From contig OZ242320.1 of assembly GCA_965208125.1 (NCBI GenBank), forward strand, positions 3,680,001 through 3,744,000: a DNA stretch of 64,000 nucleotides, in the 5' to 3' direction. Below the pieces are notes generated by a model. It saw only the letters and a program-made list of their open reading frames with translations. It did no database searches and was not told the DNA's origin. Made by a program: the position numbers and the translations under genes. This stretch comes from Candidatus Latescibacterota bacterium. GTDB lineage: Bacteria; Latescibacterota; UBA2968. This document shows positions 2-22,386 of the stretch, in pieces (the first letter of the stretch is position 1; each line of letters opens with the position of its first letter).

Positions 2-607
2 GATTCGTTAAAGAAGGCGACACAGGAGCGTATTGCCGCTCAAAAAGCAGCAGATAGTCTCGCCGTAGTGCATCAAGAGGCGCGTGAGAAGACATCGCAA
101 AGATTGCAATGGGCCATCGTCTCTGGGGGCACTGTGGTCATTCTGGTGCTTCTCGGCTGGTTCATTTTCGCGCGTAGTAAAAAGGCACAATTGCAGAGTG
201 CCGCCTCTCGTTTGAGCGAGGCAGAACAAGAGGCTGAAGTCGCGCGACAGGCCGTGGCAGAGGCACCACAGCCCGCGCCTTTCAGATGTCTATTAGAAGG
301 TCAAGATAACACAGGCCAACCCTTTGCACTGAGTATATCGGCATTAGCCCTTGGTACGTCTTCAGGTGCCACACTTGGGAGAAGCCCTGCCAATGCGGAA
401 TTTATTATTGACCACGAGGCCGTATCTCGTGAACACATCAGGCTTTTCTATACCAATGAACATCTCTATACAGAAGATCTGAACACTCTGAACGGCACTA
501 AGATCAATGGTCGCCTGCTCAATCCGCACGAATCAGTGGTATTGCAAAACAATGATCAACTCGAGTTGGGGCCTGTTGTTTTTCAAGTGCGTTTGATGCA
601 GGAGTGA
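2..607 (+). CDS. Membrane-anchored FHA-domain protein, 5'-truncated by the window edge
   Basis: Frame is open from nt 2. TM WAIVSGGTVVILVLLGWFIF, then a C-terminal FHA (LGR..., VSREH, DLNTLNGT). The C-terminal region resembles that of 611..1930. Confidence 0.85.
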   Translation, partial: DSLKKATQERIAAQKAADSLAVVHQEAREKTSQRLQWAIVSGGTVVILVLLGWFIFARSKKAQLQSAASRLSEAEQEAEVARQAVAEAPQPAPFRCLLEGQDNTGQPFALSISALALGTSSGATLGRSPANAEFIIDHEAVSREHIRLFYTNEHLYTEDLNTLNGTKINGRLLNPHESVVLQNNDQLELGPVVFQVRLMQE

Positions 608-610
608 AAA

Positions 611-1930
611 TTGCAATCGATATGCAACTATTGGCGTCTTGTCGGTCTTGTTTTCGCGTTTCTGTTTTTTTCGCGCGATGCTGTCGCCGCGCCAGACTTT
701 GATGCGCTTGAGAAGAGTGTTGTACGTATTGTAACGCAGACAAATCAGGGGATTGGTACGGGTACTGGATTTATAATTAACGATCAAGGTTATATCGTCA
801 CGAACGTACACGTTATTGCCGGTAGCAATTTGATCAAAGCAATACCGACAAATTCCAATGCACTGTACGATGTTGAAGTGATTGCCATGTCCCAGGAACT
901 CGATCTGGCAATCGTACGCGCACCAGGGATCAATCTTCCACCGATTACGCTTTCGCTCGCGCCATCGAGAAAGGGGCAAAAGGTATGGTCTATTGGTTAC
1001 CCAGGCGGAGCCGATAGGAACAGACCTGCCCACGATCCAACTGTGCAGGATGGTGTTATAGGTAGAATTTTTTCAGGTGCATGGAAGGTACAAAAATTCA
1101 GGATTATTCAACACAACGCGCCTACGAACCCCGGTAACAGCGGCGGTCCTTTATTGGACGACTGTGGAAGGGTGATCGGTGTTAATACGCAAGCGTCTCT
1201 CGTCGTGATTGCCAGCCCATCTGATGGAGTAACGCGGGTGCCACACGCGGCGGGTATTTATTGGTCTTCCCATATTGAGGAATTAGCAAAACTGTTACGT
1301 GAAAATACAATTTCTTTTCAGTCGGACGACGATGAGTGTTTGGCGGCTGATTCTACTGGGCGTTCTGCGGAGGTGGAAAGAACGCGCCGGGAGGCGGACC
1401 AAGCAAAGAGTCAAGCAGATGATGCGAGCCAGAAATTTCTTATTTGGGTGATATTATTGGGTGCTGTGGCTGTGGTCGCTCTTATACTTGCTTTGAAGAA
1501 ACCTCGGCAGCAGATCATTCACGCTGCAGACCATATCAGCCGACGCCTTAAGGCAAAAGAACCTGCTGAGGCTGTTCAAAAACGAGCATCGGAAAAACTT
1601 CCAGAATACGGTCTGATGCTGACCGGGTTTGATGGTAATGGCAATCCCATCCGCATTGCTTTACCGCCAAACAGATTCGCTGGTCAGCGTCTGGGGCTTT
1701 CATTGGGCAGGCATCCCGAGTTGGTGGATGAAATTATCCATGACCAAAATGTGTCGAGGCGGCATATGCGAATAGCGGTGCAAGCGGGTCAATTTTATAT
1801 TGAAGATTTGAACTCTCGTAACGGCACTTTTCTGAATCACCACAAATTGTCTCCGTTTAAGCCAATGCTTTTAGACTATGGTGCGATAGTGAGATTGGGT
1901 GGTTTAGAGTTCATGATTTCAAAACAGTAA
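611..1930 (+). CDS. Trypsin-like (S1) serine protease + TM + cytoplasmic FHA domain
   Basis: Signal peptide; GTGF, TNVHV (His), LDLAI (Asp), GNSGGP (Ser); TM FLIWVILLGAVAVVALILAL; FHA LGRH, VSRRH, SRNGT. TTG start is uncertain. Confidence 0.9.
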   Translation: MQSICNYWRLVGLVFAFLFFSRDAVAAPDFDALEKSVVRIVTQTNQGIGTGTGFIINDQGYIVTNVHVIAGSNLIKAIPTNSNALYDVEVIAMSQELDLAIVRAPGINLPPITLSLAPSRKGQKVWSIGYPGGADRNRPAHDPTVQDGVIGRIFSGAWKVQKFRIIQHNAPTNPGNSGGPLLDDCGRVIGVNTQASLVVIASPSDGVTRVPHAAGIYWSSHIEELAKLLRENTISFQSDDDECLAADSTGRSAEVERTRREADQAKSQADDASQKFLIWVILLGAVAVVALILALKKPRQQIIHAADHISRRLKAKEPAEAVQKRASEKLPEYGLMLTGFDGNGNPIRIALPPNRFAGQRLGLSLGRHPELVDEIIHDQNVSRRHMRIAVQAGQFYIEDLNSRNGTFLNHHKLSPFKPMLLDYGAIVRLGGLEFMISKQ

Positions 1931-1946
1931 TGAGAATGCTTTGTAA

Positions 1947-2867
1947 ATGAAAAAACGCAACCGAGAAATTAATATTTTTAGCATGTCTGCTCTCGATCTA
2001 TTCGCTTCGGCAATGGGAGCTTTCATTTTAATTACCATTGTGCTGTTTCCCTTTTTTCCGAACTTGGGCGATTCATCGGAAAACATGGAAAAAGAAAAGG
2101 CCGAACTGTTACAGGAAAAGGCTAAACTACAACAGGAAAAGGCTAAACTACAACAGGAAAAGGCTAAACTACAACAGGAAAAGGCCAGATTGGAGCAAGA
2201 AAAAGCTAAACTACAACAAGAGAGAGCTAAACTGGAACAAGAAAAAGCCAAAACCCCCCAAAAAAATACCCCACTTGAAGAACGGGTTAAAGCTCTGCAA
2301 CAGGAGATTGATGACACATCTGTTTTATTGGGTATCAGGACCAAAGCAAAGAAGTTTGTGATGGTCGTGGATATGTCTGGCAGTATTTATCAACCAGGCA
2401 GCCAGGACTATCGCCGGTTCATTACATTGTCAGTACAGAATATGCTTGCTTCTTTTCAATCGGAGATAGAATTGGTTCTTATTGGTTTTCACGCCCCAAA
2501 TCGCAGGACACGATTGCACTATTGGCCTGAAAATAGGCATTATTTTCAGGTGCGGAAGAATACGCGAAATCGCGTTATAGCTACTATAAACAACTGGATG
2601 AGTCTCGTTAATGGTGGCACACCAACCCGTGAAGCTCTGTTGGCGGCATTGGCTCTCGATCCCGAAGAGATTATCCTCTTAAGCGATGGCGCACCCTCGG
2701 AAAATTGGCGGCAGGTCGTCAATGCTATAACAGTCAGAAACAGAAAAAAAATACCGATACACGCTGTTGCTGTTGGCAACTATGTCACAAAACGAGATTT
2801 TATCGATTTTTTGGTGCAGTTGACAGAGCGGAATCGCGGGTATCTCGTAGGTGCCAAACCCGGGTGA
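1947..2867 (+). CDS. Single-TM, coiled-coil, vWA-domain protein with a MotB/ExbD-like N-terminal TM
   Basis: KKRNREINIFSMSALDLFASAMGAFILI (Asp inside the TM); QQEKAKL heptads; MIDAS DMSGS, GGT, LLSDG. Confidence 0.85.
   Translation: MKKRNREINIFSMSALDLFASAMGAFILITIVLFPFFPNLGDSSENMEKEKAELLQEKAKLQQEKAKLQQEKAKLQQEKARLEQEKAKLQQERAKLEQEKAKTPQKNTPLEERVKALQQEIDDTSVLLGIRTKAKKFVMVVDMSGSIYQPGSQDYRRFITLSVQNMLASFQSEIELVLIGFHAPNRRTRLHYWPENRHYFQVRKNTRNRVIATINNWMSLVNGGTPTREALLAALALDPEEIILLSDGAPSENWRQVVNAITVRNRKKIPIHAVAVGNYVTKRDFIDFLVQLTERNRGYLVGAKPG
2112..2249 (+). repeat. 21-nt coding tandem repeat (QEKAKLQ): 3 exact copies plus degenerate copies
   Basis: caggaaaaggctaaactacaa at 2112, 2133 and 2154, followed by variants. 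Confidence 0.95.
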
Positions 2868-2986
2868 GGAGAAGTGCGAAGTAGTAAAGTATGAGTTGGA
2901 GTTAAGGTGTTGGAAGATGTTTTAGAATCTCTGGGGGAGAGACTATGCGGATGAGACGCACGTGCACCCATTGAGAGGATTTCGGG

Positions 2987-3349
2987 ATGTCTAATTTTTT
3001 TATTTATCGAATCGGTCGCGGTTCAAATGTGGATATTCGCATTGATGATAGCACAGTTTCCCGCATTCACGCAGAGTTGGTTGTGACTGCGAAGGAGACA
3101 TATTATCTGACTGATTGCGATAGTAGCGGCGGGAGTTATGTTGCGAGAAATGGCGAGTGGGAACCTATTACGCAGGATTTTATAGCTCCGATGGATGCAA
3201 TTCTACTCGGTCGGTATCAGACGACCGTACAGCAACTCATGGCGATGATTAATCAAGGTAGCCAGGATGTAAGACGCAAGGATGATTTACCCGAAGGACC
3301 GGTGCGTCGCAATGTAGATACGGGTGAAATTATAGGAGACGAGGACTGA
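2987..3349 (+). CDS. Small stand-alone FHA protein
   Basis: IGRG, TVSRIH, DCDSSGGS; AGGA-type RBS upstream. Confidence 0.85.
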   Translation: MSNFFIYRIGRGSNVDIRIDDSTVSRIHAELVVTAKETYYLTDCDSSGGSYVARNGEWEPITQDFIAPMDAILLGRYQTTVQQLMAMINQGSQDVRRKDDLPEGPVRRNVDTGEIIGDED

Positions 3350-3350
3350 C

Positions 3351-4136
3351 ATGGCAATGGGTCAAACAGTAGAGACGAATCAACGCCTCATCGCATCAGG
3401 TTTCAGTTTAGTAATAGGTATTATTCTTATCGCGCTACTGAGTATTTTTTTTAACAGTCCCGATTCACAAGTGGGTGCTTTCTTGCTTGACCGTCACACG
3501 AAGAATTTTCCCTATCCATTTACGATCCAAAATATCATGTGGCTTATGTTTTGCATAGGCTGTGGCGAGTTGTGGGGGCGATTTAGCCAGTCCAATTTGG
3601 AGTTGAAGCAAATCTCAAAGCGGTATCTTCCAGAAGACGATTCGATTATGTTGCGGGCGCAGGATCTCGGTGCTCTCTATCAAAAGATGCGCCCAAGGGA
3701 AGGGGAACGGACTTTTTTCTTGCAACGCTTAATCACACGCTGTATTTTGCAATTTCAAGGGAGCAGATCCGTCAATCAGACCAATTCTCTGTTAAATTCT
3801 TCTCTGGAATTATTCCAGCACGAGCTTGAACTCAAATACACTATGCTGCGATATCTCGTCTGGCTGATTCCCACGATGGGCTTTATTGGCACAGTTGTGG
3901 GGATCGCCTTTGCACTGGATTATGCAGCGAGCATTGAAAATCCCCAGGATCCGACGTTGCTGGCGGAGATAACCGGACGGTTGGGTGTTGCGTTTTATAC
4001 GACCTTACTCGCCTTGATTCAATCGGCACTGTTAGTTTTTGCCCTGCATATCGCCCAAGGAAGAGAAGAGATGGCTTTGAATCAATCGGGGCAGTACTGT
4101 TTGGATAATTTAATTAACCGACTCTATGAAAAATAG
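3351..4136 (+). CDS. MotA/TolQ/ExbB proton-channel family protein
   Basis: About 4 TM segments; family motifs LIPTMGFIGTVVGI and LGVAFYTTLLAL. Confidence 0.88.
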   Translation: MAMGQTVETNQRLIASGFSLVIGIILIALLSIFFNSPDSQVGAFLLDRHTKNFPYPFTIQNIMWLMFCIGCGELWGRFSQSNLELKQISKRYLPEDDSIMLRAQDLGALYQKMRPREGERTFFLQRLITRCILQFQGSRSVNQTNSLLNSSLELFQHELELKYTMLRYLVWLIPTMGFIGTVVGIAFALDYAASIENPQDPTLLAEITGRLGVAFYTTLLALIQSALLVFALHIAQGREEMALNQSGQYCLDNLINRLYEK

Positions 4137-4148: not shown

Positions 4149-4802
4149 ATGCCTGTTTATCGGGGACCCGATGGCAAGATTATTGAAGAAAAAACCAATA
4201 AGTTAGAAGATGTAACCCAGTCGACTGACAAGGCACAAAGACCTTTGCCACCAACACCACCGGGAAGCGGTCAAGCCGCCGGTGCGGGGCGTTTGGATGC
4301 ACCCACCCAGAAGATGGATGCGAGTGGTTCTTCATCCAATGCAATTACTGAGGAAAAGACTCGGGTCGTAGGTGGTCGTCGCAGGCAAGAAGATCAGCAG
4401 CGCTTGGAAGAACGCGCCGAGAAAGCCGATGGTATGGACGATCCAGTTGTTGGGTGGTTGGTTATTGTCGAGGGGCCGGGAAAGGGGAGGGCCATGCAAT
4501 TAGGTTATGGTTCTAATTCCATTGGCCGCGGGGAGACTGACCGTGTCAATCTCAATTTCGGTGATGATCAAATTTCGCGTAGCGGACATGCTATCATGAC
4601 TTACGATCCGCGTGGCAGAAAGTTTTACGTGCAGCACGGCGGTGGTACCAATCTGACCTACGTTAACGACCAGCCCGTGCTCATTCCGATTGAGCTGCCC
4701 GCACTGAGTCATATTAGCATCGGCAATACGATTCTGCGATTTGTGCCCTTATGTGGCGACGCATTTGATTGGCAGGATACGGGAGAAAATGCGCGAGAGT
4801 AA
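4149..4802 (+). CDS. FHA protein with a disordered Thr/Pro-rich N-terminus
   Basis: PVVGWLVIVEGPGKG, NSIGRG, ISRSGH, GGTN; RBS GGAGG. Confidence 0.88.
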   Translation: MPVYRGPDGKIIEEKTNKLEDVTQSTDKAQRPLPPTPPGSGQAAGAGRLDAPTQKMDASGSSSNAITEEKTRVVGGRRRQEDQQRLEERAEKADGMDDPVVGWLVIVEGPGKGRAMQLGYGSNSIGRGETDRVNLNFGDDQISRSGHAIMTYDPRGRKFYVQHGGGTNLTYVNDQPVLIPIELPALSHISIGNTILRFVPLCGDAFDWQDTGENARE

Positions 4803-4835: not shown

Positions 4836-7316
4836 ATGAACGAAGCACAACATCCGATCCATGCCTTGCCTCAAGGATACCGACTACAGGAATACGAACT
4901 GGTACGCGTGCTCGGCTTCGGCGGCTTCGGCATGACCTATCTTGGCTTTGACCACAATCTGAACAAAGCTGTAGCCATCAAAGAATACCTGCCATCAGAT
5001 ATTTCCACCCGTACAAGCAATAATAGCGTTGTCCCACAAGCGAGCCAGTTTCAAGATGATTTTGAGTGGGGATTGGAGCGCTTTTTGGATGAAGCACGCA
5101 CCTTGGCTCGCTTTGACCATCGCAACATTATTAAAGTGTATCGTTTCTTTGAGGCACATGGCACGGCGTATATCGTGATGGAATATGCTGAGGGTGAGAC
5201 CTTGGCAGCATTTTTGGAACGCAAGGGGACGCTAACAGAAGCCGAACTCAGAGCGATACTATATCCGCTTCTGGATGGTCTGGAGGTGGTGCATCGTGCT
5301 GATTTTTTGCATCGGGACATCAAGCCTGGCAATATCATCATCCGGGATGAGGACAATTCGCCCGTGTTGCTGGACTTTGGTTCAGCGCGTCAGGCGATGG
5401 GAGCGAAGAGCCGTTCGGTTACGTCGATCATCACACCGGGATATGCGCCGATAGAGCAGTATTCGAGTCGAGGTGATCAGGGTCCTTGGACGGATATCTA
5501 TGCATTAGGTGGTGTATGCTATCGTACATTGACTGGTGAAGTGCCAGATGATGCGACGGATCGTGTTCGGGATGATCCACTTATTTCAGTAGTTGAGCTT
5601 TGTGCGGGTCAAGCGAGTTCTGGATTTTTATCTGCGATAGATTGGGCGTTGGTGGTGGATGAGGGTGATCGTCCGCAAAGTATAGGTGTATGGCGTACTG
5701 CGTTGGGGGAAGAAATACCAAGGAATGTGAGTGCTCAGCCGTCAATCACGGCGTCTGTGCCTGCCCCTCCATTGGAAGAAGAGAAGCGTGAGATAGTTGA
5801 TAGCATAGCTGGGAGGCAGCCTGATGCATTTCCATCGGAAAGAGAAAGGGGGACAAGAGGCAAGGTACTTGCTGTGATCATAAGCGTGGTTGTTGTCCTG
5901 ATTGTAGGCATAATTTATATTGATCAAGCTGAGAAGCAGCGTCAGGAGTTAGTAGCAGAACAAGCAAGACTGAAAAAAGAAAAAGCAAGATTGGCAGCAG
6001 AAAGAGCGCGAATAGCGGCAGAGCAAGCTGAGAAGCAGCGTCAAGAGCAAGCAGCATTGGAGAAGCAGCGTCAAGAGCAAGCAGCATTGGAGAAGCAGCG
6101 TCAAGAGCAAGCAGCATTGGAGAAGCAGCGTCAAGAGCAAGCAGCATTGGAGAAGCAGCGTCAAGAGCAGGCGAAAACAAAAGAAGAACTACAGGAACCA
6201 GTGTTGCACGGTGATGTGCGTCGAGGATTTTTAGGTGTACAGATTAGTGACTTAGATCCGGTGCGAGCTAAGGCTTTAGGGGCGTCCAATATCCAAGGCG
6301 TGGTAATTGAGCAGGTAATACCGGGAAAAGCTGCGGACAGAGCAGGTGTCAAGACCAATGATATTGCGATTGCAGTTGATGGTCACTCGGTGAGCGACGT
6401 AACCGAGTTGACTAGTCGGATCGGGCGTGTGCGTCCTGGTACAGAAGTCGAACTGTCAATATTGCGCAATGGTAGGAAGATGCGCATTAAGGTTGTTTTA
6501 GATGCATTGTCCGAGACAGTAGTGACTGCACATAGCCCGCTAAACAACCTGAACAATATTCAGCCTGGCCGACGTTTTAAGGACTGTTCCGTGTGTCCTG
6601 AGATGATCGTCGTTCCATCTGGTTCATTTACTATGGGGTCACCGTCCTCTGAAGTCGGACGTAAGGATACTGAAAGTCCGCAACGTCAGGTGCGTTTCAC
6701 TAGGCCATTTGCCGTGGGAGTCTATGAAGTGACATTTGAGGAATGGGATGCCTGTGTGAATGCGGGAGGATGTAACAACTCTTATCCTATTGATCAGAAT
6801 TGGGGGCGAGGCAACCGGCCCGTGATCAATGTGAGTTGGAACGATGCACAGGCTTATATACGGTGGTTATCTGAACGGACGGGCAAGCATTATCGATTAT
6901 TGAGCGAATCGGAATGGGAATATGTGGCGCGTGCAGGAACGACGACCCCATTTCATTTTGGAGCAACTATATCTACGGATCAAGCGAATTACAATGGCAA
7001 TTATACATACAACACTGGTCACAAAGGCCTATTTAGAAAAAAGACCTTACCGGTGGGAACGCTTTCACCGAACCAATTTGGTTTGTACGACATGCATGGC
7101 AATGTAATAGAGTGGACTCAGGACTGTTGGAACGACAGTTATAATCGAATATCGAGTAATGGGGCAACTCGTGAGTATGGGAACTGTGGTTTTCGCGTGA
7201 TTCGCGGTGGTTCGTGGTACAACGAACCACGGTATCTCCGCTCAGCAAATCGTGGTCGGGGTACGCGTGAGATTCGGAATGCCTATATCGGATTTCGTGT
7301 CGCCCGTACGTTCTGA
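4836..7316 (+). CDS. Ser/Thr kinase 1: kinase-TM-coiled coil-PDZ-FGE-sulfatase (SUMF1-like)
   Basis: GFGGFG, VAIKE, HRDIKPGN, DFG, YAPIE; TM; HtrA-type PDZ (RGFLGVQI...); FGE motifs FTMGS, RLLSESEWEY, GLYDMHGNVIEW, RGGSW, GFRV. Confidence 0.93.
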   Translation: MNEAQHPIHALPQGYRLQEYELVRVLGFGGFGMTYLGFDHNLNKAVAIKEYLPSDISTRTSNNSVVPQASQFQDDFEWGLERFLDEARTLARFDHRNIIKVYRFFEAHGTAYIVMEYAEGETLAAFLERKGTLTEAELRAILYPLLDGLEVVHRADFLHRDIKPGNIIIRDEDNSPVLLDFGSARQAMGAKSRSVTSIITPGYAPIEQYSSRGDQGPWTDIYALGGVCYRTLTGEVPDDATDRVRDDPLISVVELCAGQASSGFLSAIDWALVVDEGDRPQSIGVWRTALGEEIPRNVSAQPSITASVPAPPLEEEKREIVDSIAGRQPDAFPSERERGTRGKVLAVIISVVVVLIVGIIYIDQAEKQRQELVAEQARLKKEKARLAAERARIAAEQAEKQRQEQAALEKQRQEQAALEKQRQEQAALEKQRQEQAALEKQRQEQAKTKEELQEPVLHGDVRRGFLGVQISDLDPVRAKALGASNIQGVVIEQVIPGKAADRAGVKTNDIAIAVDGHSVSDVTELTSRIGRVRPGTEVELSILRNGRKMRIKVVLDALSETVVTAHSPLNNLNNIQPGRRFKDCSVCPEMIVVPSGSFTMGSPSSEVGRKDTESPQRQVRFTRPFAVGVYEVTFEEWDACVNAGGCNNSYPIDQNWGRGNRPVINVSWNDAQAYIRWLSERTGKHYRLLSESEWEYVARAGTTTPFHFGATISTDQANYNGNYTYNTGHKGLFRKKTLPVGTLSPNQFGLYDMHGNVIEWTQDCWNDSYNRISSNGATREYGNCGFRVIRGGSWYNEPRYLRSANRGRGTREIRNAYIGFRVARTF
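6030..6169 (+). repeat. 30-nt perfect coding tandem repeat (EKQRQEQAAL), about 4.6 copies
   Basis: agaagcagcgtcaagagcaagcagcattgg repeated exactly from 6031. Confidence 0.97.
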
Positions 7317-7438: not shown

Positions 7439-8002
7439 ATGAAATGGCACTATGTATGGCACTTGATGACTGTTTTCATTTTGAGTTCTCCTGCCATGTG
7501 TATTGACTCATCTGATCTCACAATTGGCGACCGTATTCGGGTTACTTTCGCAAATGGAACTATCATCACAGGTTCTATGATCTCAATGGAGGTAGATGGC
7601 TTGAAAATGAAACAAGATGGGCAGAGCCATTTTCAGAGGATGGTGACTTTTAGCGATGTCGAGCGGATAGACCACAGTATTGGTGTCAATAAGCCTCTAT
7701 TCACACCTACTATTATTTGCGGTCTGATAGGTTCAGGTATCTATACACTTTCAAAATATAAACAGGTTGAAGGACAGGAAGGGGTTCCAACAGAAGATAA
7801 GAAGTATGAATTCAGGGATTGGGATAACAAACAGGCGGCTTACTTTACGCTCGGTGGCATAACAACGGGATTTTTAATAGGCCTGATGCTCCCAGGCAAA
7901 GAGAATTGGGAGAAAGTTGAGTTAATGCAATTTGGTTTAGATATTGACATGAATTTAGGACATAGTGGAATAGCGATGCTTGAGTTGAAAATTAAATTTT
8001 AA
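7439..8002 (+). CDS. Hypothetical exported/membrane protein
   Basis: Strong RBS, signal-peptide-like N-terminus, two Gly-rich hydrophobic segments; no family recognised. Confidence 0.75.
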   Translation: MKWHYVWHLMTVFILSSPAMCIDSSDLTIGDRIRVTFANGTIITGSMISMEVDGLKMKQDGQSHFQRMVTFSDVERIDHSIGVNKPLFTPTIICGLIGSGIYTLSKYKQVEGQEGVPTEDKKYEFRDWDNKQAAYFTLGGITTGFLIGLMLPGKENWEKVELMQFGLDIDMNLGHSGIAMLELKIKF

Positions 8003-14234: not shown

Positions 14235-16264
14235 ACGACGCACACCACCGATTGGCACTGCCACAAGGTACCCGTATACAGGACTTTGAATTTCACCGCG
14301 TCTTAGGTCAAGGTGGTTTTGGCATCACTTATCTCGGCTGGAATATCGCGCTGGATATTCCCGTGGCGATTAAAGAGTATTTGCCTTCTGACCTTGCGAC
14401 CCGTGAATACGACCTGTCGGTAGTGCCACAGTCACCTCAAGCCGCGTCAGACTTTGAGTGGGGGCTGGAGCGGTTTATAGATGAAGCGAGAATATTGGCG
14501 CGTTTCCAACATCCAAACATTGTTCGTGTGCATCATTTTTTTCAAGCGCATAGCACGGCATATATTGTGATGGAATATGCCGAGGGAGAGACCTTGGCGG
14601 CATTTCTGGAACGCAGGGGGCCGCTGAGAGAATCTGAACTCAAAGCTATACTATATCCGATACTTGATGGTTTGGATGTGGTGCACCGGGCTGTTTTTTT
14701 GCATCGAGATATAAAACCGGGGAACATCATCATTCGCGATGAAGACAATTCGCCCGTGTTACTGGACTTTGGTTCAGCGCGTCAGGCAATCGGTACCAGA
14801 AGCCGTTCAGTTACATCAATTATCACGCCGGGTTATGCACCTATAGAGCAATATTCGAGTCGGGGAGATCAAGGACCCTGGACGGACATTTATGCATTGG
14901 GCGGCGTGTGTTATCGCGCATTGACAGGTCAAGTGCCGGATGATGCGACAGACCGGGTACGAAATGATCCACTCATTCCAGTTTTTGAGCGATGTGCAGG
15001 TCAAGCGAGTGCTGGGCTTCTCTCGGCGATAGATTGGGCGTTGGCAGTGGATGAAGGGGACCGCCCGCAAAGTGTGGCAGCTTGGCGTGTTGCGCTGGAG
15101 GGGGAGGTCCCAGGCAGTGTGGATGAGGAACTGTCAGTCACAAGGTCTGAAACCGTAGCCCGATCAGAAGTGCAGGATCAAGAGAGAGATGATGCCCCAC
15201 CTGTGCATTCTCCCAAGAAGCCCAAAGAGAAATTATTTGCTGCGTTTGCCTGCCTTTTCGCTCTGTTGATAGGAGGTGTCTATTATTATCACTATGAATA
15301 TCTCCCCGATCAGCGTCGTCAAGCACAGGAAGCGGAAAGAGAAAGACAAGCTATTGAGGAGGCAGAGCGTCGTCAGGCTAAAATAGCGGCATATGAGAGG
15401 AAATTTGAGGAAGTGTTGGGGCATAATGATTTTGATATGGCGGGTAGGTATGTGGATTCTATCCGAGCAGTTGATGATGATGCGTCAATGTTGTCAGATT
15501 TAGAAGGTCGTTTGTCTGCGGCACGTCAGGCTGATCAGCGTCGTCAGGCGCAAGCTGCATTGGAAAAGCAACGTCAAGCAGCGGAAAAAGCAAAACTGGC
15601 AGCAGAAAAAGTCGAACGCACGCGCCAGAGACAGGTATTTGTCGCAGAAGTGGGGCGTATGCCGTATCCAAGGGGGATGAACGATAAGGATGAGACCGAT
15701 CTGCACATTGTAGCTAAATTGAACCTGCCTATGCTGACTATATCCTTGCTGAATCAGGATGCCGGTGTCAACGCGAAGAACAATTTTGGATTTACGCCTC
15801 TGCACTTTGCTGCAATGGAAAATGCTCATGAGACAGCAGAGGTATTGCTGAAATATGGTGCTGATGCCAACGAGAAGGACAACTCTGGTTCTACGCCGTT
15901 ACACACTGCGGTAGAGAACAACGCTCTTGAAACGACAGAGATATTGCTCAAACACGGTGCTGATGTCAACGCGAAGAACTATTCTGGTCATACGCCGCTG
16001 CACACAGCGGCGGCGAATAATGCTCATGAGATAGCAGAGGTATTGCTCAAACACGGTGCTGATGCCAATGCGAAGAACAATTATGGCGATACACCACTGC
16101 ACAACGCGGGGTGGAAAAATAATCACGAGACAGCGGAGGTATTACTCAAACATGGAGCCGATGTCAACGCCAAGGACAAATATGGCAATACGCCGCTACA
16201 CAATGCTGTGGAAAAAAATAATTACGAGACAGTGGAGGTATTGCGGCGTTATGGCGGACGATAA
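14231..16264 (+). CDS. Ser/Thr kinase 4: kinase-TM-coiled coil-ankyrin repeats
   Basis: GTGA overlap with the PP2C gene; GQGGFG, HRDIKPGN, DFG; TM; about 6 ankyrin repeats. Confidence 0.93.
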   Translation: MNDAHHRLALPQGTRIQDFEFHRVLGQGGFGITYLGWNIALDIPVAIKEYLPSDLATREYDLSVVPQSPQAASDFEWGLERFIDEARILARFQHPNIVRVHHFFQAHSTAYIVMEYAEGETLAAFLERRGPLRESELKAILYPILDGLDVVHRAVFLHRDIKPGNIIIRDEDNSPVLLDFGSARQAIGTRSRSVTSIITPGYAPIEQYSSRGDQGPWTDIYALGGVCYRALTGQVPDDATDRVRNDPLIPVFERCAGQASAGLLSAIDWALAVDEGDRPQSVAAWRVALEGEVPGSVDEELSVTRSETVARSEVQDQERDDAPPVHSPKKPKEKLFAAFACLFALLIGGVYYYHYEYLPDQRRQAQEAERERQAIEEAERRQAKIAAYERKFEEVLGHNDFDMAGRYVDSIRAVDDDASMLSDLEGRLSAARQADQRRQAQAALEKQRQAAEKAKLAAEKVERTRQRQVFVAEVGRMPYPRGMNDKDETDLHIVAKLNLPMLTISLLNQDAGVNAKNNFGFTPLHFAAMENAHETAEVLLKYGADANEKDNSGSTPLHTAVENNALETTEILLKHGADVNAKNYSGHTPLHTAAANNAHEIAEVLLKHGADANAKNNYGDTPLHNAGWKNNHETAEVLLKHGADVNAKDKYGNTPLHNAVEKNNYETVEVLRRYGGR

Positions 16265-16297: not shown

Positions 16298-18013
16298 ATG
16301 ACCGGCGCACAACACCCCCTCAATGCTCTGCCACAAGGCCACAGGCTCCAGGAATACGAACTGGTACGCGTGCTCGGCTTTGGGGGATTTGGTATGACCT
16401 ATCTCGGCTTTGATCACAATCTGGACAAAGCCGTTGCGATTAAAGAATATCTGCCATCCGATATTGCTACCCGTACAGGCGATAATAGTGTTGTGCCACA
16501 AGCGAGCCAGTTTCGAGGTGATTTTGAGTGGGGATTAGATCGTTTCGTGGATGAGGCACGCGCCTTGGCCCGGTTTGACCATCGCAACATTATTAAAGTG
16601 TATCGTTTCTTTGAGGCACATGGCACAGCGTATATCGTGATGGAATATGCTGAAGGAGAAACCTTGGCAGCGTTTCTGGAACGCAAGGGGACGCTAACAG
16701 AGGCCGAACTCAGAGCGATACTATATCCGCTTCTGGATGGCCTGGAGGTGGTACATCGGGCTAATTTTTTGCATCGGGATATAAAGCCGGGCAACATCAT
16801 CATCCGCGATGAAGACAATTCTCCCGTGTTGTTGGACTTTGGTTCAGCGCGTCAGGCGATGGGAGCAAGGAGCCGTTCGGTTACGTCAATTATCACACCG
16901 GGTTATGCGCCAATAGAGCAGTATTCGAGTCGTGGGAATCAGGGACCCTGGACGGATATTTATGCGTTGGGTGGTGTGTGTTACCGAGCATTGACAGGAG
17001 AGGTGCCGGATGATGCGACAGAAAGAGTACGCCATGACCCGCTCATTCCAGTGGTTGAGCGGTGTGCGGAGCAAGTGGATGCTGGATTTCTTCTGGCGAT
17101 AGATTGGGCATTGGCGGTAGATGAAGGTGATCGTCCGCAAAATATCGGTACCTGGCGTACTGCACTGATAGGTAATTCGACAGATGATTCGATGGAAGCA
17201 GAAAAGCGTGAAGCGGTTGATGATACTGCCATTAGGGCTACTGAAGAAAAGCGTGAGGAAGAGGTATTTGTCGCAGAGGTGGGCCGCGTGCCATCCCCGG
17301 ATGCAGTGGACGATGATGGTGGGACCGACCTGCACCATGCAGCGGCTATGAGCCTACCCTTGATGACTATATCCTTACTGAAGCAAGGGGCAGAGGTCAA
17401 TGCGCAGGACAATGATGGCTTTACTCCGCTGCACTATGCGGCAGCAGGAAAAAATGCCCATGAGATAGCGGCCATGTTACTGAGTCATGGTGCTGAAGTC
17501 AACACGAGAAACAAATATGGCGAGACGCCGCTGTATTGGGCTGCGATGAAAAATGCTTGTGAGATGACCAAGGTCTTACTGAATTGGGATGCTGAAGTCA
17601 ACACGAAAAGCGAATATAGCCAGACGCCACTGCATTGGGCTGCGATGGAAAATGCACATGAGGCAGCAGAAGTATTGCTGAATCAGGGAGCTGAAGTCAA
17701 CGTGAAGGACAAATATGGCGAGACGCCGCTGCACCGTGCGGTGCGAGAAAATGCTCGTGAGATGGCTGATATTTTACTGAATTGGGGTGCCGAAGTCAAC
17801 ACAAAGAACAATTCCGGTAGCACACCACTGGACATTGCGGTGGGTAAAAATGCACATGAGATAGCTGAGGTCTTACACCAATGTCATAATGAGAGCTTGC
17901 GCCAGCCTCTCTATAAGGACAAAAAAACGAGATCTGGAAGTGGTGGATGCTTAGTGCTGGTAGTGGTGTTCTTAATCATAAAGGCATTCGTATTGGGAAT
18001 GATAGGCTGTTGA
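16298..18013 (+). CDS. Ser/Thr kinase 5: kinase-ankyrin repeats-C-terminal TM
   Basis: Kinase motifs; no central TM; about 6 ankyrin repeats; hydrophobic tail CLVLVVVFLIIKAFVLGMIGC. Confidence 0.92.
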   Translation: MTGAQHPLNALPQGHRLQEYELVRVLGFGGFGMTYLGFDHNLDKAVAIKEYLPSDIATRTGDNSVVPQASQFRGDFEWGLDRFVDEARALARFDHRNIIKVYRFFEAHGTAYIVMEYAEGETLAAFLERKGTLTEAELRAILYPLLDGLEVVHRANFLHRDIKPGNIIIRDEDNSPVLLDFGSARQAMGARSRSVTSIITPGYAPIEQYSSRGNQGPWTDIYALGGVCYRALTGEVPDDATERVRHDPLIPVVERCAEQVDAGFLLAIDWALAVDEGDRPQNIGTWRTALIGNSTDDSMEAEKREAVDDTAIRATEEKREEEVFVAEVGRVPSPDAVDDDGGTDLHHAAAMSLPLMTISLLKQGAEVNAQDNDGFTPLHYAAAGKNAHEIAAMLLSHGAEVNTRNKYGETPLYWAAMKNACEMTKVLLNWDAEVNTKSEYSQTPLHWAAMENAHEAAEVLLNQGAEVNVKDKYGETPLHRAVRENAREMADILLNWGAEVNTKNNSGSTPLDIAVGKNAHEIAEVLHQCHNESLRQPLYKDKKTRSGSGGCLVLVVVFLIIKAFVLGMIGC

Positions 18014-18224: not shown

Positions 18225-19970
18225 ATGAACGACGCTCAACAACCTCTCAATGCTCTGCCCCAGGGCCACCGGCTCCAGGAATACGAACTGGTACGCGTGC
18301 TCGGCTTCGGGGGATTCGGCATGACCTATCTCGGCTTTGATCACAACTTGGACAAAGCCGTTGCTATCAAGGAATACCTCCCATCCGATATTGCCACCCG
18401 TGCAAGCAATAATAGCGTTGCTCCGCAGGCCAGTCAGTTTCACGATGATTTTGAATGGGGATTGGGTCGTTTCTTAGATGAAGCCCGCGCCTTAGCCCGG
18501 TTCGATCATCGCCATATCATTAAAATACATCGTTTCTTTGAGGCACATGGCACAGCGTATATCGTGATGGAATATGCTGAAGGTGAGACCTTGTCGGCGT
18601 TGCTGGAACGCAAAGGGACATTGAGAGAAGCTGAACTCAGATCGATACTATATCCGCTTCTTGATGGTCTGGAAGTGGTGCATGGGGCTGATTTTCTACA
18701 TCGGGATATAAAGCCTGGCAATATCATCATTCGTGATGAGGACAATTCGCCAGTGTTGTTGGACTTTGGTTCAGCGCGTCAGGCGATAGGAGCAAGGAGC
18801 CGTTCAGTTACGTCGATCATCACGCCGGGATATGCGCCTATAGAGCAGTATTCGAGTCGGGGAGATCAGGGGCCATGGACGGATATCTATGCGTTGGGAG
18901 GCGTATGTTATCGCGCACTGACGGGTGAGGTGCCGGATGATGCGACAGATCGTATGCGGAATGATCCGCTTATTCCAGTGATTGAGCGATACGCGGGGCA
19001 AGTGAGCGAGGAGTTTCTTTCTGCGATAGATTGGGCGTTGCAGGTAGATGAAGGGGACCGCCCGCAGAGTATCGTTGCATGGCGGGCTGTGTTGCAAGGT
19101 GAGACACAGGCCCTGCACGTCAATGAAGGTACAATCTCTGCTAGCCCAGTTGTGCTGCGTCCCAAGACTTCGGTGCCTACAGGCTCTGCACCCCCTGCGG
19201 CGGCACGTCAGGAGGAATTGGAACTTCAGGACAAGGTTGAGAATTTGGAAAGCAGGCATGGTCTGGAGTTTGTGTGGATAAAGCCTGGGACATTTAAAAT
19301 GGGTTCTCCGTCCTCTGAGAAGGACCGCTATGATAATGAAGGTCCAGTCCATATGGTGCGGATAAGCGAGGGATTTTGGTTGGGTAAGTGTGAAGTAACG
19401 CAAGGCCAGTGGGAGAGTGTGATGAGAACGCGGCCTTGGCAGGGAATATTCAAAATCAAGCGTTATGTGCGTTCAGGTGCGAATAATCCAGCGGTATATA
19501 TCTCTTGGAATGATGTTCAAAAATTTATTGGTCGGTTGAACGCGGCGGCGGGTTCAAAAGTATATCGTTTGCCTACTGAAGCAGAGTGGGAGTATGCGTG
19601 TCGGGCAGGGACGCGTACGCGTTGGTCTTTTGGTGATGATGAGAGCCAATTGAAACATTATGCGTGGTATGCTGATAATGCGTTGGGTGAGAAGTATGGT
19701 CATAGCGTGGGGACAAAGCGAGCAAACCCTTGGGGGTTGTATGATATGCATGGGAATGTATGGGAATGGACACAGGATTGTTATAAAGATAGCTATTCGG
19801 GAGCACCCACTGACGGTTCTGCATGGAAGTCTCAGAACTGCGATATTCGCGTATTGCGTGGTGGTTCGTGGTACGACGAACCGAGGAGCTTGCGTTCGGC
19901 GAATCGCAGCAGGTACACCGCCGGGAACCGGTACAGCAGCGTCGGTTTTCGGATTGTCCGGCGTTTTTAA
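18225..19970 (+). CDS. Ser/Thr kinase 6: kinase-FGE-sulfatase, no TM
   Basis: Kinase motifs; FKMGS, RLPTEAEWEYACRAG, GLYDMHGNVWEW, RGGSW, GFRI. Confidence 0.93.
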   Translation: MNDAQQPLNALPQGHRLQEYELVRVLGFGGFGMTYLGFDHNLDKAVAIKEYLPSDIATRASNNSVAPQASQFHDDFEWGLGRFLDEARALARFDHRHIIKIHRFFEAHGTAYIVMEYAEGETLSALLERKGTLREAELRSILYPLLDGLEVVHGADFLHRDIKPGNIIIRDEDNSPVLLDFGSARQAIGARSRSVTSIITPGYAPIEQYSSRGDQGPWTDIYALGGVCYRALTGEVPDDATDRMRNDPLIPVIERYAGQVSEEFLSAIDWALQVDEGDRPQSIVAWRAVLQGETQALHVNEGTISASPVVLRPKTSVPTGSAPPAAARQEELELQDKVENLESRHGLEFVWIKPGTFKMGSPSSEKDRYDNEGPVHMVRISEGFWLGKCEVTQGQWESVMRTRPWQGIFKIKRYVRSGANNPAVYISWNDVQKFIGRLNAAAGSKVYRLPTEAEWEYACRAGTRTRWSFGDDESQLKHYAWYADNALGEKYGHSVGTKRANPWGLYDMHGNVWEWTQDCYKDSYSGAPTDGSAWKSQNCDIRVLRGGSWYDEPRSLRSANRSRYTAGNRYSSVGFRIVRRF

Positions 19971-20122: not shown

Positions 20123-20320
20123 ATGGCGGGGCAAGGTTCGGGCGGTAATGTTCTGGCAGCTTTGTGTAGCTTTTTTATTCCGGGTTTGGGCCAGTTGCTT
20201 CAGGGGCGTTTGCTAATTGCCCTTTTCCAATTTGTTTTGGCGGCCATCCTGTGGTTTATCTGGATGGGCTGGATAATCCATCTGTGGTCAGTTTTGAACG
20301 CGGCCCGGTGGAGACCATGA
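20123..20320 (+). CDS. Small two-TM membrane protein
   Basis: RBS AAGGAG; GNVLAALCSFFIPGLGQLLQGR (TM2-like motif). Confidence 0.8.
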   Translation: MAGQGSGGNVLAALCSFFIPGLGQLLQGRLLIALFQFVLAAILWFIWMGWIIHLWSVLNAARWRP

Positions 20321-20382
20321 GCGCATATAATCGTTAATATCGACAATCGTGCTCAGGTAGAGTACGCGATAAGAGGAAGTAT

Positions 20383-21579
20383 ATGGACCTTTTAGACGGA
20401 CGATTTGCCGCGCAGCAAATTCCCGGTGGGCGGGAATATCAGGAGGACGATTACGGTCTGATTGAGCCGGGTGATCCCGATGCTGATGGAAGTGAGGTAT
20501 TATTGATAGCCGATGGGATGGGTGGACACGTCAGCGGCGATACGGCGAGCAGGACGGTGGTCAAAACCTTTGTGGAGACCTATCACTGCACGGATGGACC
20601 GGTGCCGGATCGTCTGCGTGCTTGTCTCAATGCGGCCAATGATGCTCTCGCCGAAGCAATCAAAGAAAACCCTGAATTGGAGGGCATGGGATCGACTGTG
20701 GTCGCAGCCGTTGTTTCACAACACGGACTCGACTGGATCAGCGTGGGCGATTCCCCCTTGTGGTTGTTCCGCGATGGCAAGTTGCGCCGTCTCAATGCCG
20801 ATCACTCTATGGCACCTGTGCTTGCGAACCTGGTGGCGGTTGGGCGTATGACTGAGGAAGAAGCGGCGACGGATCCCAAACGCCATGCCCTGCGTTCGGC
20901 GGTTATGGGCGATGAAATTCACCTGATTGATGTCTCATCGCAACCTGTTGCTGTTCGGAAAAGTGATCGTCTGTTATTGGCGAGTGATGGTTTAATGACG
21001 CTTGAGGATGGGGAGATCGCGGGTATTTTACAGAATATGCAGGACGCAACTTTGTCAGAAGTCGCCGATGCACTCATCCAGGCTGTGGAAGAGGTCGGAC
21101 ATTCCAATCAGGACAATACGACGGTGTTGCTCTACACTCCGAAGGCCGATTGTGGGGTAGAAATGCTTCCCGTTGATATTGCCCAAGAGGCGCCCAAACA
21201 GCGCGAGGAGACTGAGCGGGCAGGTCGAAAGAAGGGCCTGTTTTGGATATTGTTATGTGGGGTTTTGGTTGCATTTGTAGTGCTCGCGTATTGGATCACG
21301 TCGCGCACGCACCACGAAGAAGCCACGTTTGAACCCCCACCGGTACCGCAGGTAGAGCCAACCAAACAGGATGTTTTTCTACCGGCTATGAGAACTCCTG
21401 ATTTAGAAGTGCAGCCAGGTGGCAAACCTCCGCAGACAGAACTCCCCGTAGAGAATGCGCCAGCACAACTTGATACAGGCAAGGTAAACGGGGAATCACC
21501 GAAAGAAAAAAACGAAGATACTTCAACAAAGGCATCTGCACCGCCCGATACTACGACACAATCGAAAGGACCGATGTGA
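20383..21579 (+). CDS. PP2C/PPM phosphatase with TM and Pro-rich tail (copy 2)
   Basis: Catalytic domain nearly identical to 13035..14234. Confidence 0.93.
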   Translation: MDLLDGRFAAQQIPGGREYQEDDYGLIEPGDPDADGSEVLLIADGMGGHVSGDTASRTVVKTFVETYHCTDGPVPDRLRACLNAANDALAEAIKENPELEGMGSTVVAAVVSQHGLDWISVGDSPLWLFRDGKLRRLNADHSMAPVLANLVAVGRMTEEEAATDPKRHALRSAVMGDEIHLIDVSSQPVAVRKSDRLLLASDGLMTLEDGEIAGILQNMQDATLSEVADALIQAVEEVGHSNQDNTTVLLYTPKADCGVEMLPVDIAQEAPKQREETERAGRKKGLFWILLCGVLVAFVVLAYWITSRTHHEEATFEPPPVPQVEPTKQDVFLPAMRTPDLEVQPGGKPPQTELPVENAPAQLDTGKVNGESPKEKNEDTSTKASAPPDTTTQSKGPM

Positions 21580-21635
21580 ACGACGCACAGCACCGATTGG
21601 CACTACCACAAGGCACTCAAATACAGGACTTTGAA
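21576..21635 (+). pseudogene. Truncated seventh kinase (first 20 codons only)
   Basis: MNDAQHRLALPQGTQIQDFE matches the kinase 4 start, then switches abruptly to AT-rich DNA. Confidence 0.85.
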
Positions 21636-21717
21636 GATCCTCTTAGTGTAATAAATAGAAAAAGAAAGAGAATGGTATAGAGATGTATTATTATTTTATA
21701 TTATATTTATTTTTAGT

Positions 21718-21746
21718 TTTACTTATGAATTTCGTTTTAGTATATT
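21718..21746 (+). promoter_or_regulatory. Putative sigma70 promoter with AT-rich upstream tract
   Basis: TTTACT-17 nt-TATATT. Confidence 0.5.
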
Positions 21747-21960
21747 GTTCCTCTGAAGGGGCAGATCTTTATGGTAGAGGGTAGCTAAAGATAAAGGGCC
21801 GAATAGAAATTACTGAATAGCTATTTTAATTGTTAATTATTAAATCCATTGATAGGTAATAAGACCGCCGAATGGTGGTTTGTTAAATTACGGTGGCCTG
21901 ATGGGATAAAAAATTATCAACATCATCCATCAGACACCACAACCCAATTGGGAGGAAGAT

Positions 21961-22386
21961 ATGAATAAAAAACAAAAAGAAGTTAATGTTAACGCGCAGG
22001 ATAGCTCTGATCAGATGTTACTACACGAGGCGGCCAGTAGAAACGCTTTTGTGACAGTGGAGAAATGGCTGAGAAAAGGTCTTGATGCAAACACAAAGGC
22101 CCAAAATGGCGATACGCCGTTGCACTATGCGGCAAGGGCGTACGACGCTCCTGAAACGGCAAAGGTATTGCTCAAATACGGGGCTATGGTCAACGAGAAG
22201 AACATTTTTGGCAATACGCCGTTGCACTATGCGGCGGTACATGACTTTCCTGGGATGGCAAAGATGTTGATTGAACACGGTGCCGAGGTCAATGCGGAGA
22301 ACATTTTTGGCAATACGCCGTTGCACCGTGCGAATTCGTATAGATCTCATAAAACAGCAAAGGTGTTGGATCGTCACGGTGCGTGA
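21961..22386 (+). CDS. Stand-alone ankyrin-repeat protein
   Basis: RBS GGAGG; about 4 GxTPLH repeats; no signal peptide. Confidence 0.9.
   Translation: MNKKQKEVNVNAQDSSDQMLLHEAASRNAFVTVEKWLRKGLDANTKAQNGDTPLHYAARAYDAPETAKVLLKYGAMVNEKNIFGNTPLHYAAVHDFPGMAKMLIEHGAEVNAENIFGNTPLHRANSYRSHKTAKVLDRHGA

Follow-up and report, generated by a model that had tools for sequence, protein, structure and literature searches.

A widespread gene cluster in a Latescibacterota bacterium combines a MotA/TolQ-like protein, a vWA protein and FHA-tethered proteases with Ser/Thr kinases and PP2C phosphatases

Gene content of the cluster

The DNA described here is a stretch of 64,000 nucleotides (nt) from contig OZ242320.1 of a Candidatus Latescibacterota bacterium (assembly GCA_965208125.1, positions 3,680,001 to 3,744,000), referred to as the window. 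Its positions 2-22386 carry a gene cluster in which Ser/Thr kinases, PP2C phosphatases and FHA proteins are combined with proteases, a vWA membrane protein and a MotA/TolQ-like protein. This part was analysed by listing its open reading frames (ORFs), by Pfam, NCBIfam and PADLOC scans and by a crude hydropathy scan. Every gene lies on the + strand in one single run, as a first-pass annotation made from the letters alone had described, and the writer/reader/eraser gene set reported there (kinases, FHA proteins and PP2C phosphatases) is indeed linked to genes for the MotA-like protein, the vWA membrane protein and proteases. The conserved core comprises two proteins of the order protease, transmembrane (TM) segment and FHA domain, a protein with an N-terminal helix, a coiled coil and a vWA domain, a small FHA protein (FHA_s), the MotA/TolQ-like protein, a further FHA protein (FHA_c), a membrane PP2C and at least one Hanks kinase. 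The intergenic gaps of the core measure 1-33 nt, except for one of 119 nt ahead of the FHA_s gene. Counts over related loci, numbered L001 onwards, refer to the best 80 of at least 566 relative loci, 61 of the 80 being full-length, and all their ORFs were searched with the window proteins.

The first two genes encode the protease-TM-FHA proteins. The protein encoded at 611-1930 has an N-terminal hydrophobic, signal-like segment, a Trypsin_2 domain (E-value 4.7e-29), a TM segment at residues 277-295 and an FHA domain (E-value 1.9e-16) according to Pfam and hydropathy, which confirms the fusion seen in the first reading. Its protease is predicted to be periplasmic and its FHA domain cytoplasmic; the protease triad motifs are intact (H67, D98 and S177) and the FHA motif GR..SR.H is kept. 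The ORF at 2-607, whose 5' part lies beyond the window edge, encodes a C-terminal part of 201 residues with a TM segment at residues 38-56 (hydropathy scan) and an FHA domain (Pfam E-value 1.7e-15), and is 85% identical to residues 365-565 of a 565-residue orthologue with Trypsin_2 and FHA domains in locus L078 (5724-7421). Since this ORF matches the C-terminus of the L078 protease-FHA protein, the cluster contains two protease-TM-FHA paralogues and begins about 1.1 kb before the window. In locus L076, a 502-residue protein with a vWA domain followed by an FHA domain (7902-9410) stands in place of the protease-TM-FHA protein, beside the FHA_s and MotA-like genes, so the FHA-tethered module may be exchangeable.

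FHA_s (2987-3349; Pfam FHA E-value 1.4e-12) is a small cytoplasmic protein, and the stop codon of its gene lies 1 nt ahead of the start of the MotA-like gene, which it adjoins in 60 of the 80 loci. FHA_c (4149-4802; E-value 4.1e-7) is likewise cytoplasmic and has a long N-terminal tail; this N-terminal half looks disordered and carries conserved threonines. In the otherwise variable tail of FHA_c, at least 95% of 77 sequences keep T71 and at least 80% keep T16 and T53, and T112 in the C-terminal tail of FHA_s is conserved in at least 95% of 60 sequences. A Val, Leu, Met or Ile at position +3 after the threonine is a common preference of FHA domains, and one of these four residues follows each of the conserved threonines in the window at that position. 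By this conservation, FHA_c T71 and FHA_s T112 are candidate phosphorylation sites. All four FHA domains score above the Pfam cut-off, and the phosphothreonine-binding Arg, Ser and His (GR..SR.H-type motif) are intact in 4/4. The four FHA proteins counted in the first-pass annotation were found, and the protease fusion, listed there as an addition, is one of them: there are four FHA ORFs in all (2-607, 611-1930, 2987-3349 and 4149-4802).

Six kinase genes follow FHA_c. Kinase 1 (4836-7316) has a Hanks kinase domain, a TM segment (residues 344-362), a coiled coil, a PDZ domain and an FGE-sulfatase-like domain. In kinase 2 (8410-10566) and kinase 4 (14231-16264) the kinase domain is followed by a TM segment, a coiled coil and ankyrin (Ank) repeats, and in kinase 3 (10588-12819) by a TM segment, a coiled coil and an FGE-sulfatase-like domain. 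Kinase 5 (16298-18013) has Ank repeats, predicted to be cytoplasmic, and a C-terminal TM anchor, and kinase 6 (18225-19970) has an FGE-sulfatase-like domain, no detected TM segment and a predicted soluble location. In order, the C-termini are thus PDZ plus FGE-sulfatase, Ank, FGE, Ank, Ank and FGE. Because a TM segment stands after the kinase domain in kinases 1-4, an extracytoplasmic position is predicted for their sensor modules, including the Ank repeats of kinases 2 and 4; the name of receptor kinases given to all of them at first fits these four and does not fit the proteins starting at 16298, with its C-terminal anchor only, and at 18225, with no TM segment. A tblastn search with the kinase domain returned exactly six copies, and the Gly loop, the VAIK Lys, HRD and DFG are intact in 6/6 (Pkinase E-values about 1e-38 to 1e-39), in agreement with the six intact kinases annotated. 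The supposed truncated seventh kinase was rejected: it has no kinase match by tblastn and is the Ank-only ORF of 141 residues at 21961-22386 (Ank_2, E-value 2.2e-39), the last of the cluster. A stand-alone Ank ORF within the kinase array, as in the window, was also found in L001.

The two PP2C genes named in the annotation were both recovered. PP2C 1 (13035-14234) consists of a cytoplasmic PP2C domain, a TM segment at residues 287-305 and a Pro/Glu/Thr-rich tail; it matches PP2C_2 above the cut-off (E-value 2.2e-11) and an Stp1-type model below the cut-off (E-value 3.7e-42). PP2C 2 (20383-21579) is a recent duplicate of it, with 98% protein identity over the first 260 residues, and a 1.4-kb match of 91% nucleotide identity takes in both genes and the regions upstream of them (12888-14290 versus 20234-21635). 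The metal-binding motifs DGMGG and DNTT are intact in both.

The kinase domains are 76-94% identical in protein, kinase 4 being the most divergent (76% to kinase 1), whereas the FGE domains share only 44-52%. At the DNA level the kinase genes share 78-86% identity over their 5' 0.9-1.3 kb, a short stretch ahead of each start codon included. Judged by these identities, the six-kinase array is a recent, lineage-specific local tandem expansion. The likeness of the kinase domains, the divergence of the FGE domains and the intact catalytic and binding motifs indicate that the original observation is real and not due to chance, and at the level of sequence it may be regarded as partly confirmed. Two other ORFs lie within the array. 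The first, between kinases 1 and 2 (7439-8002), encodes 187 residues of no known family with a hydrophobic N-terminus, has no Pfam, PADLOC or NCBIfam match, is without a counterpart throughout the 80 related loci, resembles an insertion into the array and is probably not part of the system. The second, a 190-residue ORF at 12452-13024, was rejected as a gene, as it overlaps kinase 3 and belongs to no family.

Across related loci the array varies widely. The 61 full-length loci show no kinase in 3 cases, one in 30, two in 16, three in 7, four in 4 and five in 1, these counts being lower bounds as the flanks end at 10 kb. The six kinases of the window thus stand at the extreme of the range, and the view that a kinase array defines the system was given up, since 30/61 loci show one kinase and only one shows five. 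The variability of the kinase C-termini, by contrast, holds for the window and for the family as a whole (Ank, FGE, Sel1, peptidoglycan-binding, DUF4328, PDZ and others). Among 120 kinase ORFs in related loci, 31 carry Ank, 29 FGE and 60 other C-termini; 51 of these 60, namely those with at least 80 residues past the kinase domain, were scanned. Sel1 repeats were found in 12, DUF4328 in 3, PG_binding_1 in 2, and PDZ, PEGA, TerB plus DnaJ, TM2 and SNase in one each, while 4 gave weak matches only and 25 no match. Unusual C-termini include TerB plus DnaJ in L016 (3048-3833), a staphylococcal-nuclease domain in L079 (5025-5642) and an RDD plus a peptidoglycan-binding domain in L009 (250-1959).

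Related loci and genomic surroundings

A word-indexed search with the MotA-like protein found 2186 homologues at E-values up to 1e-3, and against cluster representatives there were 187, 1416 and 3267 matches at thresholds of 1e-30, 1e-10 and 1e-3. A pattern scan of species-representative genomes gave at least 599 matches, at least 566 of them encoding a relative. In the 80 best loci, FHA_c was present in 78, a kinase in 75, PP2C in 74, a vWA-type protein in 69, a protease-FHA protein in 64 and FHA_s in 60. Six core parts (MotA-like, FHA_c, kinase, PP2C, vWA-type and protease-FHA) occur together in 60/80 loci and in 50/61 full-length ones, so that the FHA, motor, vWA and kinase genes do show a conserved linkage in other genomes. 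Clustering of the unassigned ORFs in the 80 loci revealed no further general component, the largest family being present in 16 loci.

Contigs with the labels Latescibacterota, Pseudomonadota, Acidobacteriota, Binatota and Gemmatimonadota share the gene order, and some loci of proteobacterial, Binatia and acidobacterial origin have the protease and vWA genes behind PP2C rather than ahead of the MotA-like gene. By record titles, the family also occurs in SAR86 and Pseudohongiella. The nearest loci among the matches listed are L001 (94% identity), L078 (93%) and L002 (91%), all labelled Latescibacterota, and the window groups with them in the tree. In three loci with Gemmatimonadota or Acidimicrobiaceae labels (L012, L035 and L046), the MotA-like gene is nested in the Latescibacterota clade against L008/L010, L034 and L033; some branch lengths there are about 0.002-0.01, which points to very recent transfer or to contigs binned to the wrong genome. 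Among 72,556 plasmid records a single match was found, a variant carried by a megaplasmid in the cultured Rhizobium leguminosarum strain BT01 (L081), in which genes for PP2C, FHA_c and a kinase lie on one strand and those for PP2C, FHA_s, the MotA-like protein and the helix protein on the other.

These distribution data bear on the proposal, already raised in the first-pass annotation, that the cluster serves in anti-phage defence or another conflict, in which a Zorya-like motor would sense envelope perturbation, the variable kinases would be sensors and the proteases effectors. Several features would suit such a role. The cluster is present two or three times on several contigs (one of them holds L005, L014 and L044), the kinase repertoires differ between close relatives, and transposases interrupt some loci. 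Toxin-antitoxin genes adjoin the cluster, namely HigBA in the window and HipA and PIN in L078 and L001. PADLOC gave weak matches to ZorA2 (E-value 2.8e-4) and ZorB1, and the protease domain resembles its RT-Protease and Avs1b models. Against this, the PADLOC matches concern generic kinase, Ank and protease domains, with no system-specific one, the 50,697 phage records held no match and the plasmid records only the one described, and the flanks consist of diverse housekeeping genes. The core proteins are 55-94% identical across phyla, unlike fast-evolving defence genes, and the MotA-like tree mostly follows the phylum labels, with 11 changes of label where shuffled labels give 36.2 on average. 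The conserved core also lacks a nuclease or NADase-type effector. Zorya ZorAB is a non-flagellar, 5:2-type MotA-like motor with extra cytoplasmic components, and its structure is among the Foldseek matches described below; the cluster differs in that its 261-residue protein lacks the long ZorA tail and no peptidoglycan-binding ZorB is present, and PADLOC found no ZorC-G in the cluster. A defence role therefore has little support and appears to us distinctly improbable.

Another reading is that of an orphan threonine phosphorylation pathway steering a type VI secretion system (T6SS) encoded elsewhere. In the known pathway (PpkA/PppA/Fha1/TagR), a Hanks kinase, a PP2C and an FHA reader gate the assembly of an envelope machine, with an FGE-sulfatase-like periplasmic sensor, and the cluster resembles it in the co-occurrence of kinase, PP2C, FHA and FGE-sulfatase-like domains and in weak TagH matches of 21-33 bits. 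These scores are far below the cut-off of the TagH model (TIGR03354; 120.25 bits). No T6SS family was found in the cluster or in the other 42 kb of the window, in 22 flank ORFs of L078 and L001, in 32 further in-cluster or flank ORFs of relatives, or in 98 flank ORFs of 36 loci (NCBIfam, E-value up to 1e-20), where the flanks differ by locus. The absence of a T6SS context noted at first thus extends to the relatives' flanks, upstream ones included, the window's own DNA before its first nucleotide being outside the scope of the analysis. The conserved partners are MotA-like, vWA and protease genes instead, and the cluster differs further from the T6SS pathway in having four FHA domains, two of them on proteases, and a MotA-like motor as its output. 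We regard T6SS-type regulation as largely refuted and hardly credible any longer, and the locus is not a T6SS accessory.

The cluster ends next to a HigA-family antitoxin gene (22525-22923, - strand; TIGR02607, E-value 2.8e-30), directly upstream of which a 93-residue ORF (22932-23213, - strand) has the look of a HigB-type toxin by position and size. In L078 and L001, the upstream genes encode a metallophosphatase, a DUF255 thioredoxin-like protein and an FAD oxidoreductase, with a PIN protein in L001, and the downstream gene encodes HipA. The remaining 40-42 kb or so of the window hold chromosomal genes of an ordinary kind, among them those for DnaB, a RadA-like protein, LepA, signal peptidase and polysaccharide export, and no tRNA gene was found in the window. 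Three gene groups on the - strand were noted there: two circularly permuted ATP-grasp proteins with an Alpha-E protein and a transglutaminase-like protein (24649-29722); three adjacent genes for a MoxR-type AAA_3 ATPase, a DUF58/vWA protein and a TPR protein, which form a second, unrelated vWA module (34456-36840); and a DAC-domain protein of the diadenylate cyclase type beside a Tpt1/KptA RNA 2'-phosphotransferase (38241-39836). The cumulative GC skew peaks near 31-32 kb (about 30000-33000), where the gene orientation switches from mostly + to mostly -.

The MotA-like protein and its vWA partner

The 261-residue MotA/TolQ/ExbB-like protein (3351-4136) matches PF01618 (MotA_ExbB) with 39.5 bits, above the cut-off of 22.9 (E-value 5.7e-10). 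The top Foldseek matches of its AlphaFold2 model (pLDDT 83.7) in the PDB are only TolQ, ExbB, MotA, ZorA and PomA, with probabilities of 0.99-1.00 and TM-scores of 0.34-0.56; family and A-subunit fold thus bear out the MotA/TolQ-like assignment of the first reading. All of 17 aligned sequences share P174, T175, G177, G180, T181, T217 and T218, which lie in TM3 and TM4 and would line the pore, and the Gly/Thr motif of TM3 aligns with TolQ. The C-terminus is very conserved, and the gene is the most conserved of the cluster. A search for longer, fused forms gave three matches, none of them informative, and a protein atlas search returned generic MotA_ExbB clusters only.

The gene at 1947-2867 encodes a putative motor B subunit, consisting of a TM helix, a coiled coil and a vWA domain (identified by motif, AlphaFold2 and Foldseek). 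Although the vWA domain scores below the Pfam cut-off (20.6 against 23.8 bits), the listed ones among 58 Foldseek matches of the model (pLDDT 75) in the PDB at E-values up to 1e-3 are all vWA or integrin-I-type domains, so the vWA membrane protein of the first-pass annotation is confirmed by its fold. It possesses a complete metal-ion-dependent adhesion site (MIDAS; D142, S144, S146, T227 and D247), invariant in 18 sequences. The basic N-terminus is followed by the one TM helix detected and is predicted to lie inside (hydropathy and positive-inside rule). The motif of this N-terminal helix, including Asp17, is invariant in 64/64 homologues. No periplasmic OmpA-like or ExbD-type domain is present; a coiled coil (about residues 43-123, with 21-nt in-frame tandem repeats) and the vWA domain stand instead. 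The perfect or near-perfect repeats run over 2068-2273, and in-frame repeats with a perfect 30-nt unit lie at 6000-6179 in the coiled-coil stalk of kinase 1; stalk length differs among homologues, so the repeats may be length-variable spacers.

A search with residues 1-42 of the vWA protein found 572 proteins, and the N-terminal helix is the constant part of this family, in which the coiled coil varies in length and the C-terminal domain is of three kinds: the vWA type of the window, a classical vWA and a beta-rich domain (DUF2135 by one source). In 68/80 loci the helix motif occurs no more than 10 kb from the MotA-like gene; of the 12 loci where it was missed, 8 are on contigs of less than 13 kb. 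As a rule there is one helix-bearing vWA-type gene per locus, and two were found in 3/80 (L030 and L031, 7647-9578; L072, 4362 and 8616), an arrangement reminiscent of the heterologous pairs of PMC12204202 discussed below. No MotB, ExbD or TolR gene and no ExbD/MotB family match was found by Pfam in the cluster or in 32 further in-cluster or flank ORFs of relatives.

A membrane-buried Asp in the single-pass partner of a MotA-like protein is a hallmark of B subunits. Given the invariant Asp17 helix and the absence of a MotB, ExbD or TolR gene from the cluster, we infer that the MotA-like protein and the vWA protein would form a non-canonical 5:2 ion-driven motor with the vWA protein as its B subunit. 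The ion-motor core described in the first reading therefore holds for the MotA-like protein, while the B-subunit look of the vWA protein and the second protease-FHA paralogue had been missed there. The buried-Asp signature of ion-coupled 5:2 motors is restated in section 8 of PMC12204202, which also proposes transpore-helix-vWA partners for tolQ-like genes lacking tolR/exbD. The motors described there resemble the present pair in having a membrane-tethered vWA protein beside a tolQ-like gene, no tolR/exbD, and a conserved Asp in a helix whose predicted place is inside the pentamer. They differ in that the text mentions no kinase or FHA domain ('fha' only as FhaC) and in that their genes come mostly as heterologous pairs, from Proteobacteria and Verrucomicrobia, whereas here there is mostly one gene per locus and, unlike that set, the contigs are labelled Latescibacterota, Acidobacteriota, Binatota and others, the two families being compared by description only (PMC12204202).

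Several points weigh against a motor at the centre of a conserved machine. In sequence, the MotA-like protein is only marginally similar to solved A subunits (TolQ, E-value 0.35), and the TM-scores are moderate. A profile search of the PDB with the helix found no ExbD, TolR or MotB chain, 22 members of the helix-protein family gave no ExbD/MotB Pfam match at E-values up to 1, and PADLOC offered only a weak ZorB1 match for the helix protein (E-value about 1e-3). The helix motif is missing from 4/61 full-length loci, and 11/61 lack at least one core part. The protease is absent from some variants, the Rhizobium locus L081 included, and the vWA head is replaced in many lineages, so neither can be essential to the basic mechanism. 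The sole FHA-MotA fusion (P0039) is one sequence and may be a sequencing artefact because its two genes abut. The topologies given here rest on the crude hydropathy scan and the positive-inside rule. A complex prediction with a non-native set of four MotA-like chains (residues 59-261) and two vWA chains (residues 1-50), run without controls, scored 0.12 with a mark of 0.32 and counts neither for nor against the motor.

A further view takes the cluster as a signalling module only, a network of Ser/Thr kinase, PP2C and FHA proteins for envelope or host sensing, which would use the MotA-like and vWA proteins as substrates, as scaffolds or as a gated ion channel without rotary force. Its model would be the actinobacterial set of FhaA, FhaB (FipA), PstP, PknA and PknB, where receptor-type kinases bearing extracytoplasmic sensors, a TM-anchored PP2C and small FHA adaptors control envelope processes. 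The PP2C-TM architecture mirrors that set, the FHA proteins match FhaB/FipA-like models (E-values 6.7e-13 and 1.7e-13, below the cut-off), the kinases give Stk1/PknB-like matches in NCBIfam, and in the cluster rotation and the 5:2 stoichiometry are drawn from sequence and fold. All actinobacterial-type NCBIfam matches are below their cut-offs, however, and the cluster has FGE, Ank and Sel1 sensors rather than PASTA and MotA-like, vWA and protease genes instead of RodA/PbpA. The rank of the MotA-like gene as the most conserved one argues for a functional centre over a passive substrate. The invariant buried Asp (64/64), together with the conserved Thr and Pro of the A subunit, is the ion-coupled 5:2 signature (PMC12204202, section 8). 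We consider signalling alone doubtful as a full account of the locus.

An adhesion or gliding apparatus like Agl-Glt was also weighed, with a vWA adhesin-like head that would be driven by the motor and with the FHA proteins in the role of GltG. The focal-adhesion machinery of Myxococcus has vWA adhesins and an FHA protein (PMC12204202, section 8, and the accessible part of PMC11761067), and FHA_s and the PP2C tail gave weak NCBIfam matches to GltG/GltJ (E-values 7.5e-6 and 1.4e-3). These matches are far below the cut-offs, no Glt/Agl, outer-membrane or cytoskeletal partner is conserved near the cluster, and the family is present in the planktonic-type lineages SAR86 and Pseudohongiella; gliding is accordingly a very unlikely function. 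A parallel of another kind is offered by the type IX secretion system, in which the GldLM motor and the PorK/GldK ring bring together a 5:2 motor, a long periplasmic B-subunit stalk and FGE-sulfatase-fold proteins in one machine. The kinase FGE domains match the NCBIfam GldK model (E-values 2e-26 to 8e-20, below the cut-off) and are similar to GldJ too. Unlike that system, the cluster has no other type IX secretion genes and its FGE-like domain is fused to kinases, and we take the parallel only as a lead.

A possible phospho-regulated membrane machine

Taken together, we favour the reading of the locus as a self-contained, widespread and phospho-regulated membrane machine with a motor, proteases and a switch of kinase, PP2C and FHA proteins, at a probability of roughly 0.5. 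Most likely, the kinase/PP2C/FHA layer would gate the assembly or activity of the motor and of the periplasmic proteases. Building on the parts list, conservation, folds and motifs observed, the following mechanism may be suggested, in which stoichiometry, rotation, targets and output are conditional. Five MotA-like subunits around two Asp-bearing helices would make an ion-driven 5:2 motor, whose axle would act through the coiled-coil stalk on the periplasmic, MIDAS-containing vWA head, or on the DUF2135-like beta domain in other lineages. The kinases would sense periplasmic or cytoplasmic cues through their interchangeable C-terminal modules (FGE-like, ankyrin, Sel1, peptidoglycan-binding and others) and phosphorylate threonines on themselves or on the FHA proteins, with FHA_c T71 and FHA_s T112 as candidates, and the membrane PP2C would remove these marks. 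Binding of phosphothreonine by the four FHA domains would let FHA_s and FHA_c dock at, or leave, the cytoplasmic face of the motor, and would cluster the two protease-TM-FHA proteins, so that the cytoplasmic phospho-state would set both periplasmic proteolysis and motor engagement. In the Latescibacterota-like lineage, tandem duplication has expanded this input layer to six kinases and two PP2Cs, and all kinases may feed one output. As the physiological output, envelope remodelling or surveillance is our preferred guess.

No description that combines FHA, vWA, PP2C and MotA, or a Hanks-type kinase, FHA and TolQ, was found in the paper library searched, only thematically related systems, and neither PADLOC nor NCBIfam gave a system-level or equivalog-level name for the cluster. 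Among the related systems, Sulfolobus ArnA (FHA) and ArnB (vWA) and the Deinococcus operon DRA0331-0334 (vWA, kinase, FHA and PP2C) also have linked genes for vWA, FHA, Ser/Thr kinase and phosphatase proteins, and phosphorylation controls complex formation there, as far as the accessible parts of these sources go (PMC6509490, PMC12852372 and bioRxiv 10.64898/2026.01.23.701218). According to the same parts, their vWA proteins are cytoplasmic FHA partners, whereas an N-in TM helix is predicted to place the vWA domain of the cluster in the periplasm, and the cluster adds a MotA-like gene and proteases to that core. A survey of MotAB homologues, in the part accessible, leaves many 'generic ion transporters' without function. 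The gene cluster is apparently undescribed, a new variant on 5:2 motors and on FHA/kinase-gated envelope machines.

The 5:2 motors studied so far drive major envelope processes (flagellar stators, Ton, Tol, gliding and type IX secretion, and Zorya), and we know of none that is wired to eukaryote-like Ser/Thr phosphorylation. If the favoured reading is true, the cluster joins the fields of 5:2 motors and Ser/Thr phosphorylation. A bolder idea, which we hold as speculative and probably too far-reaching, is that of an unrecognised class of phospho-gated 5:2 machines driven by the proton-motive force, in which kinases with swappable heads would license a motor whose rotating axle carries a vWA 'hook' and which would act jointly with FHA-tethered periplasmic proteases; this would be a 'grab-and-cut' device for the ATP-free periplasm, with a kinase repertoire diversified in some lineages like innate-immune or host-recognition receptors. 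The cluster offers a defined set of eight gene families for asking how phosphothreonine readers control a membrane motor and periplasmic proteolysis, and the kinase array provides a natural example of an unchanging kinase chassis whose sensor modules are rapidly swapped. The variant in a cultured Rhizobium leguminosarum makes the idea testable, and the family is a common one, with at least 566 loci in species-representative genomes, 187 protein clusters at E-values up to 1e-30 and multiple copies per genome.

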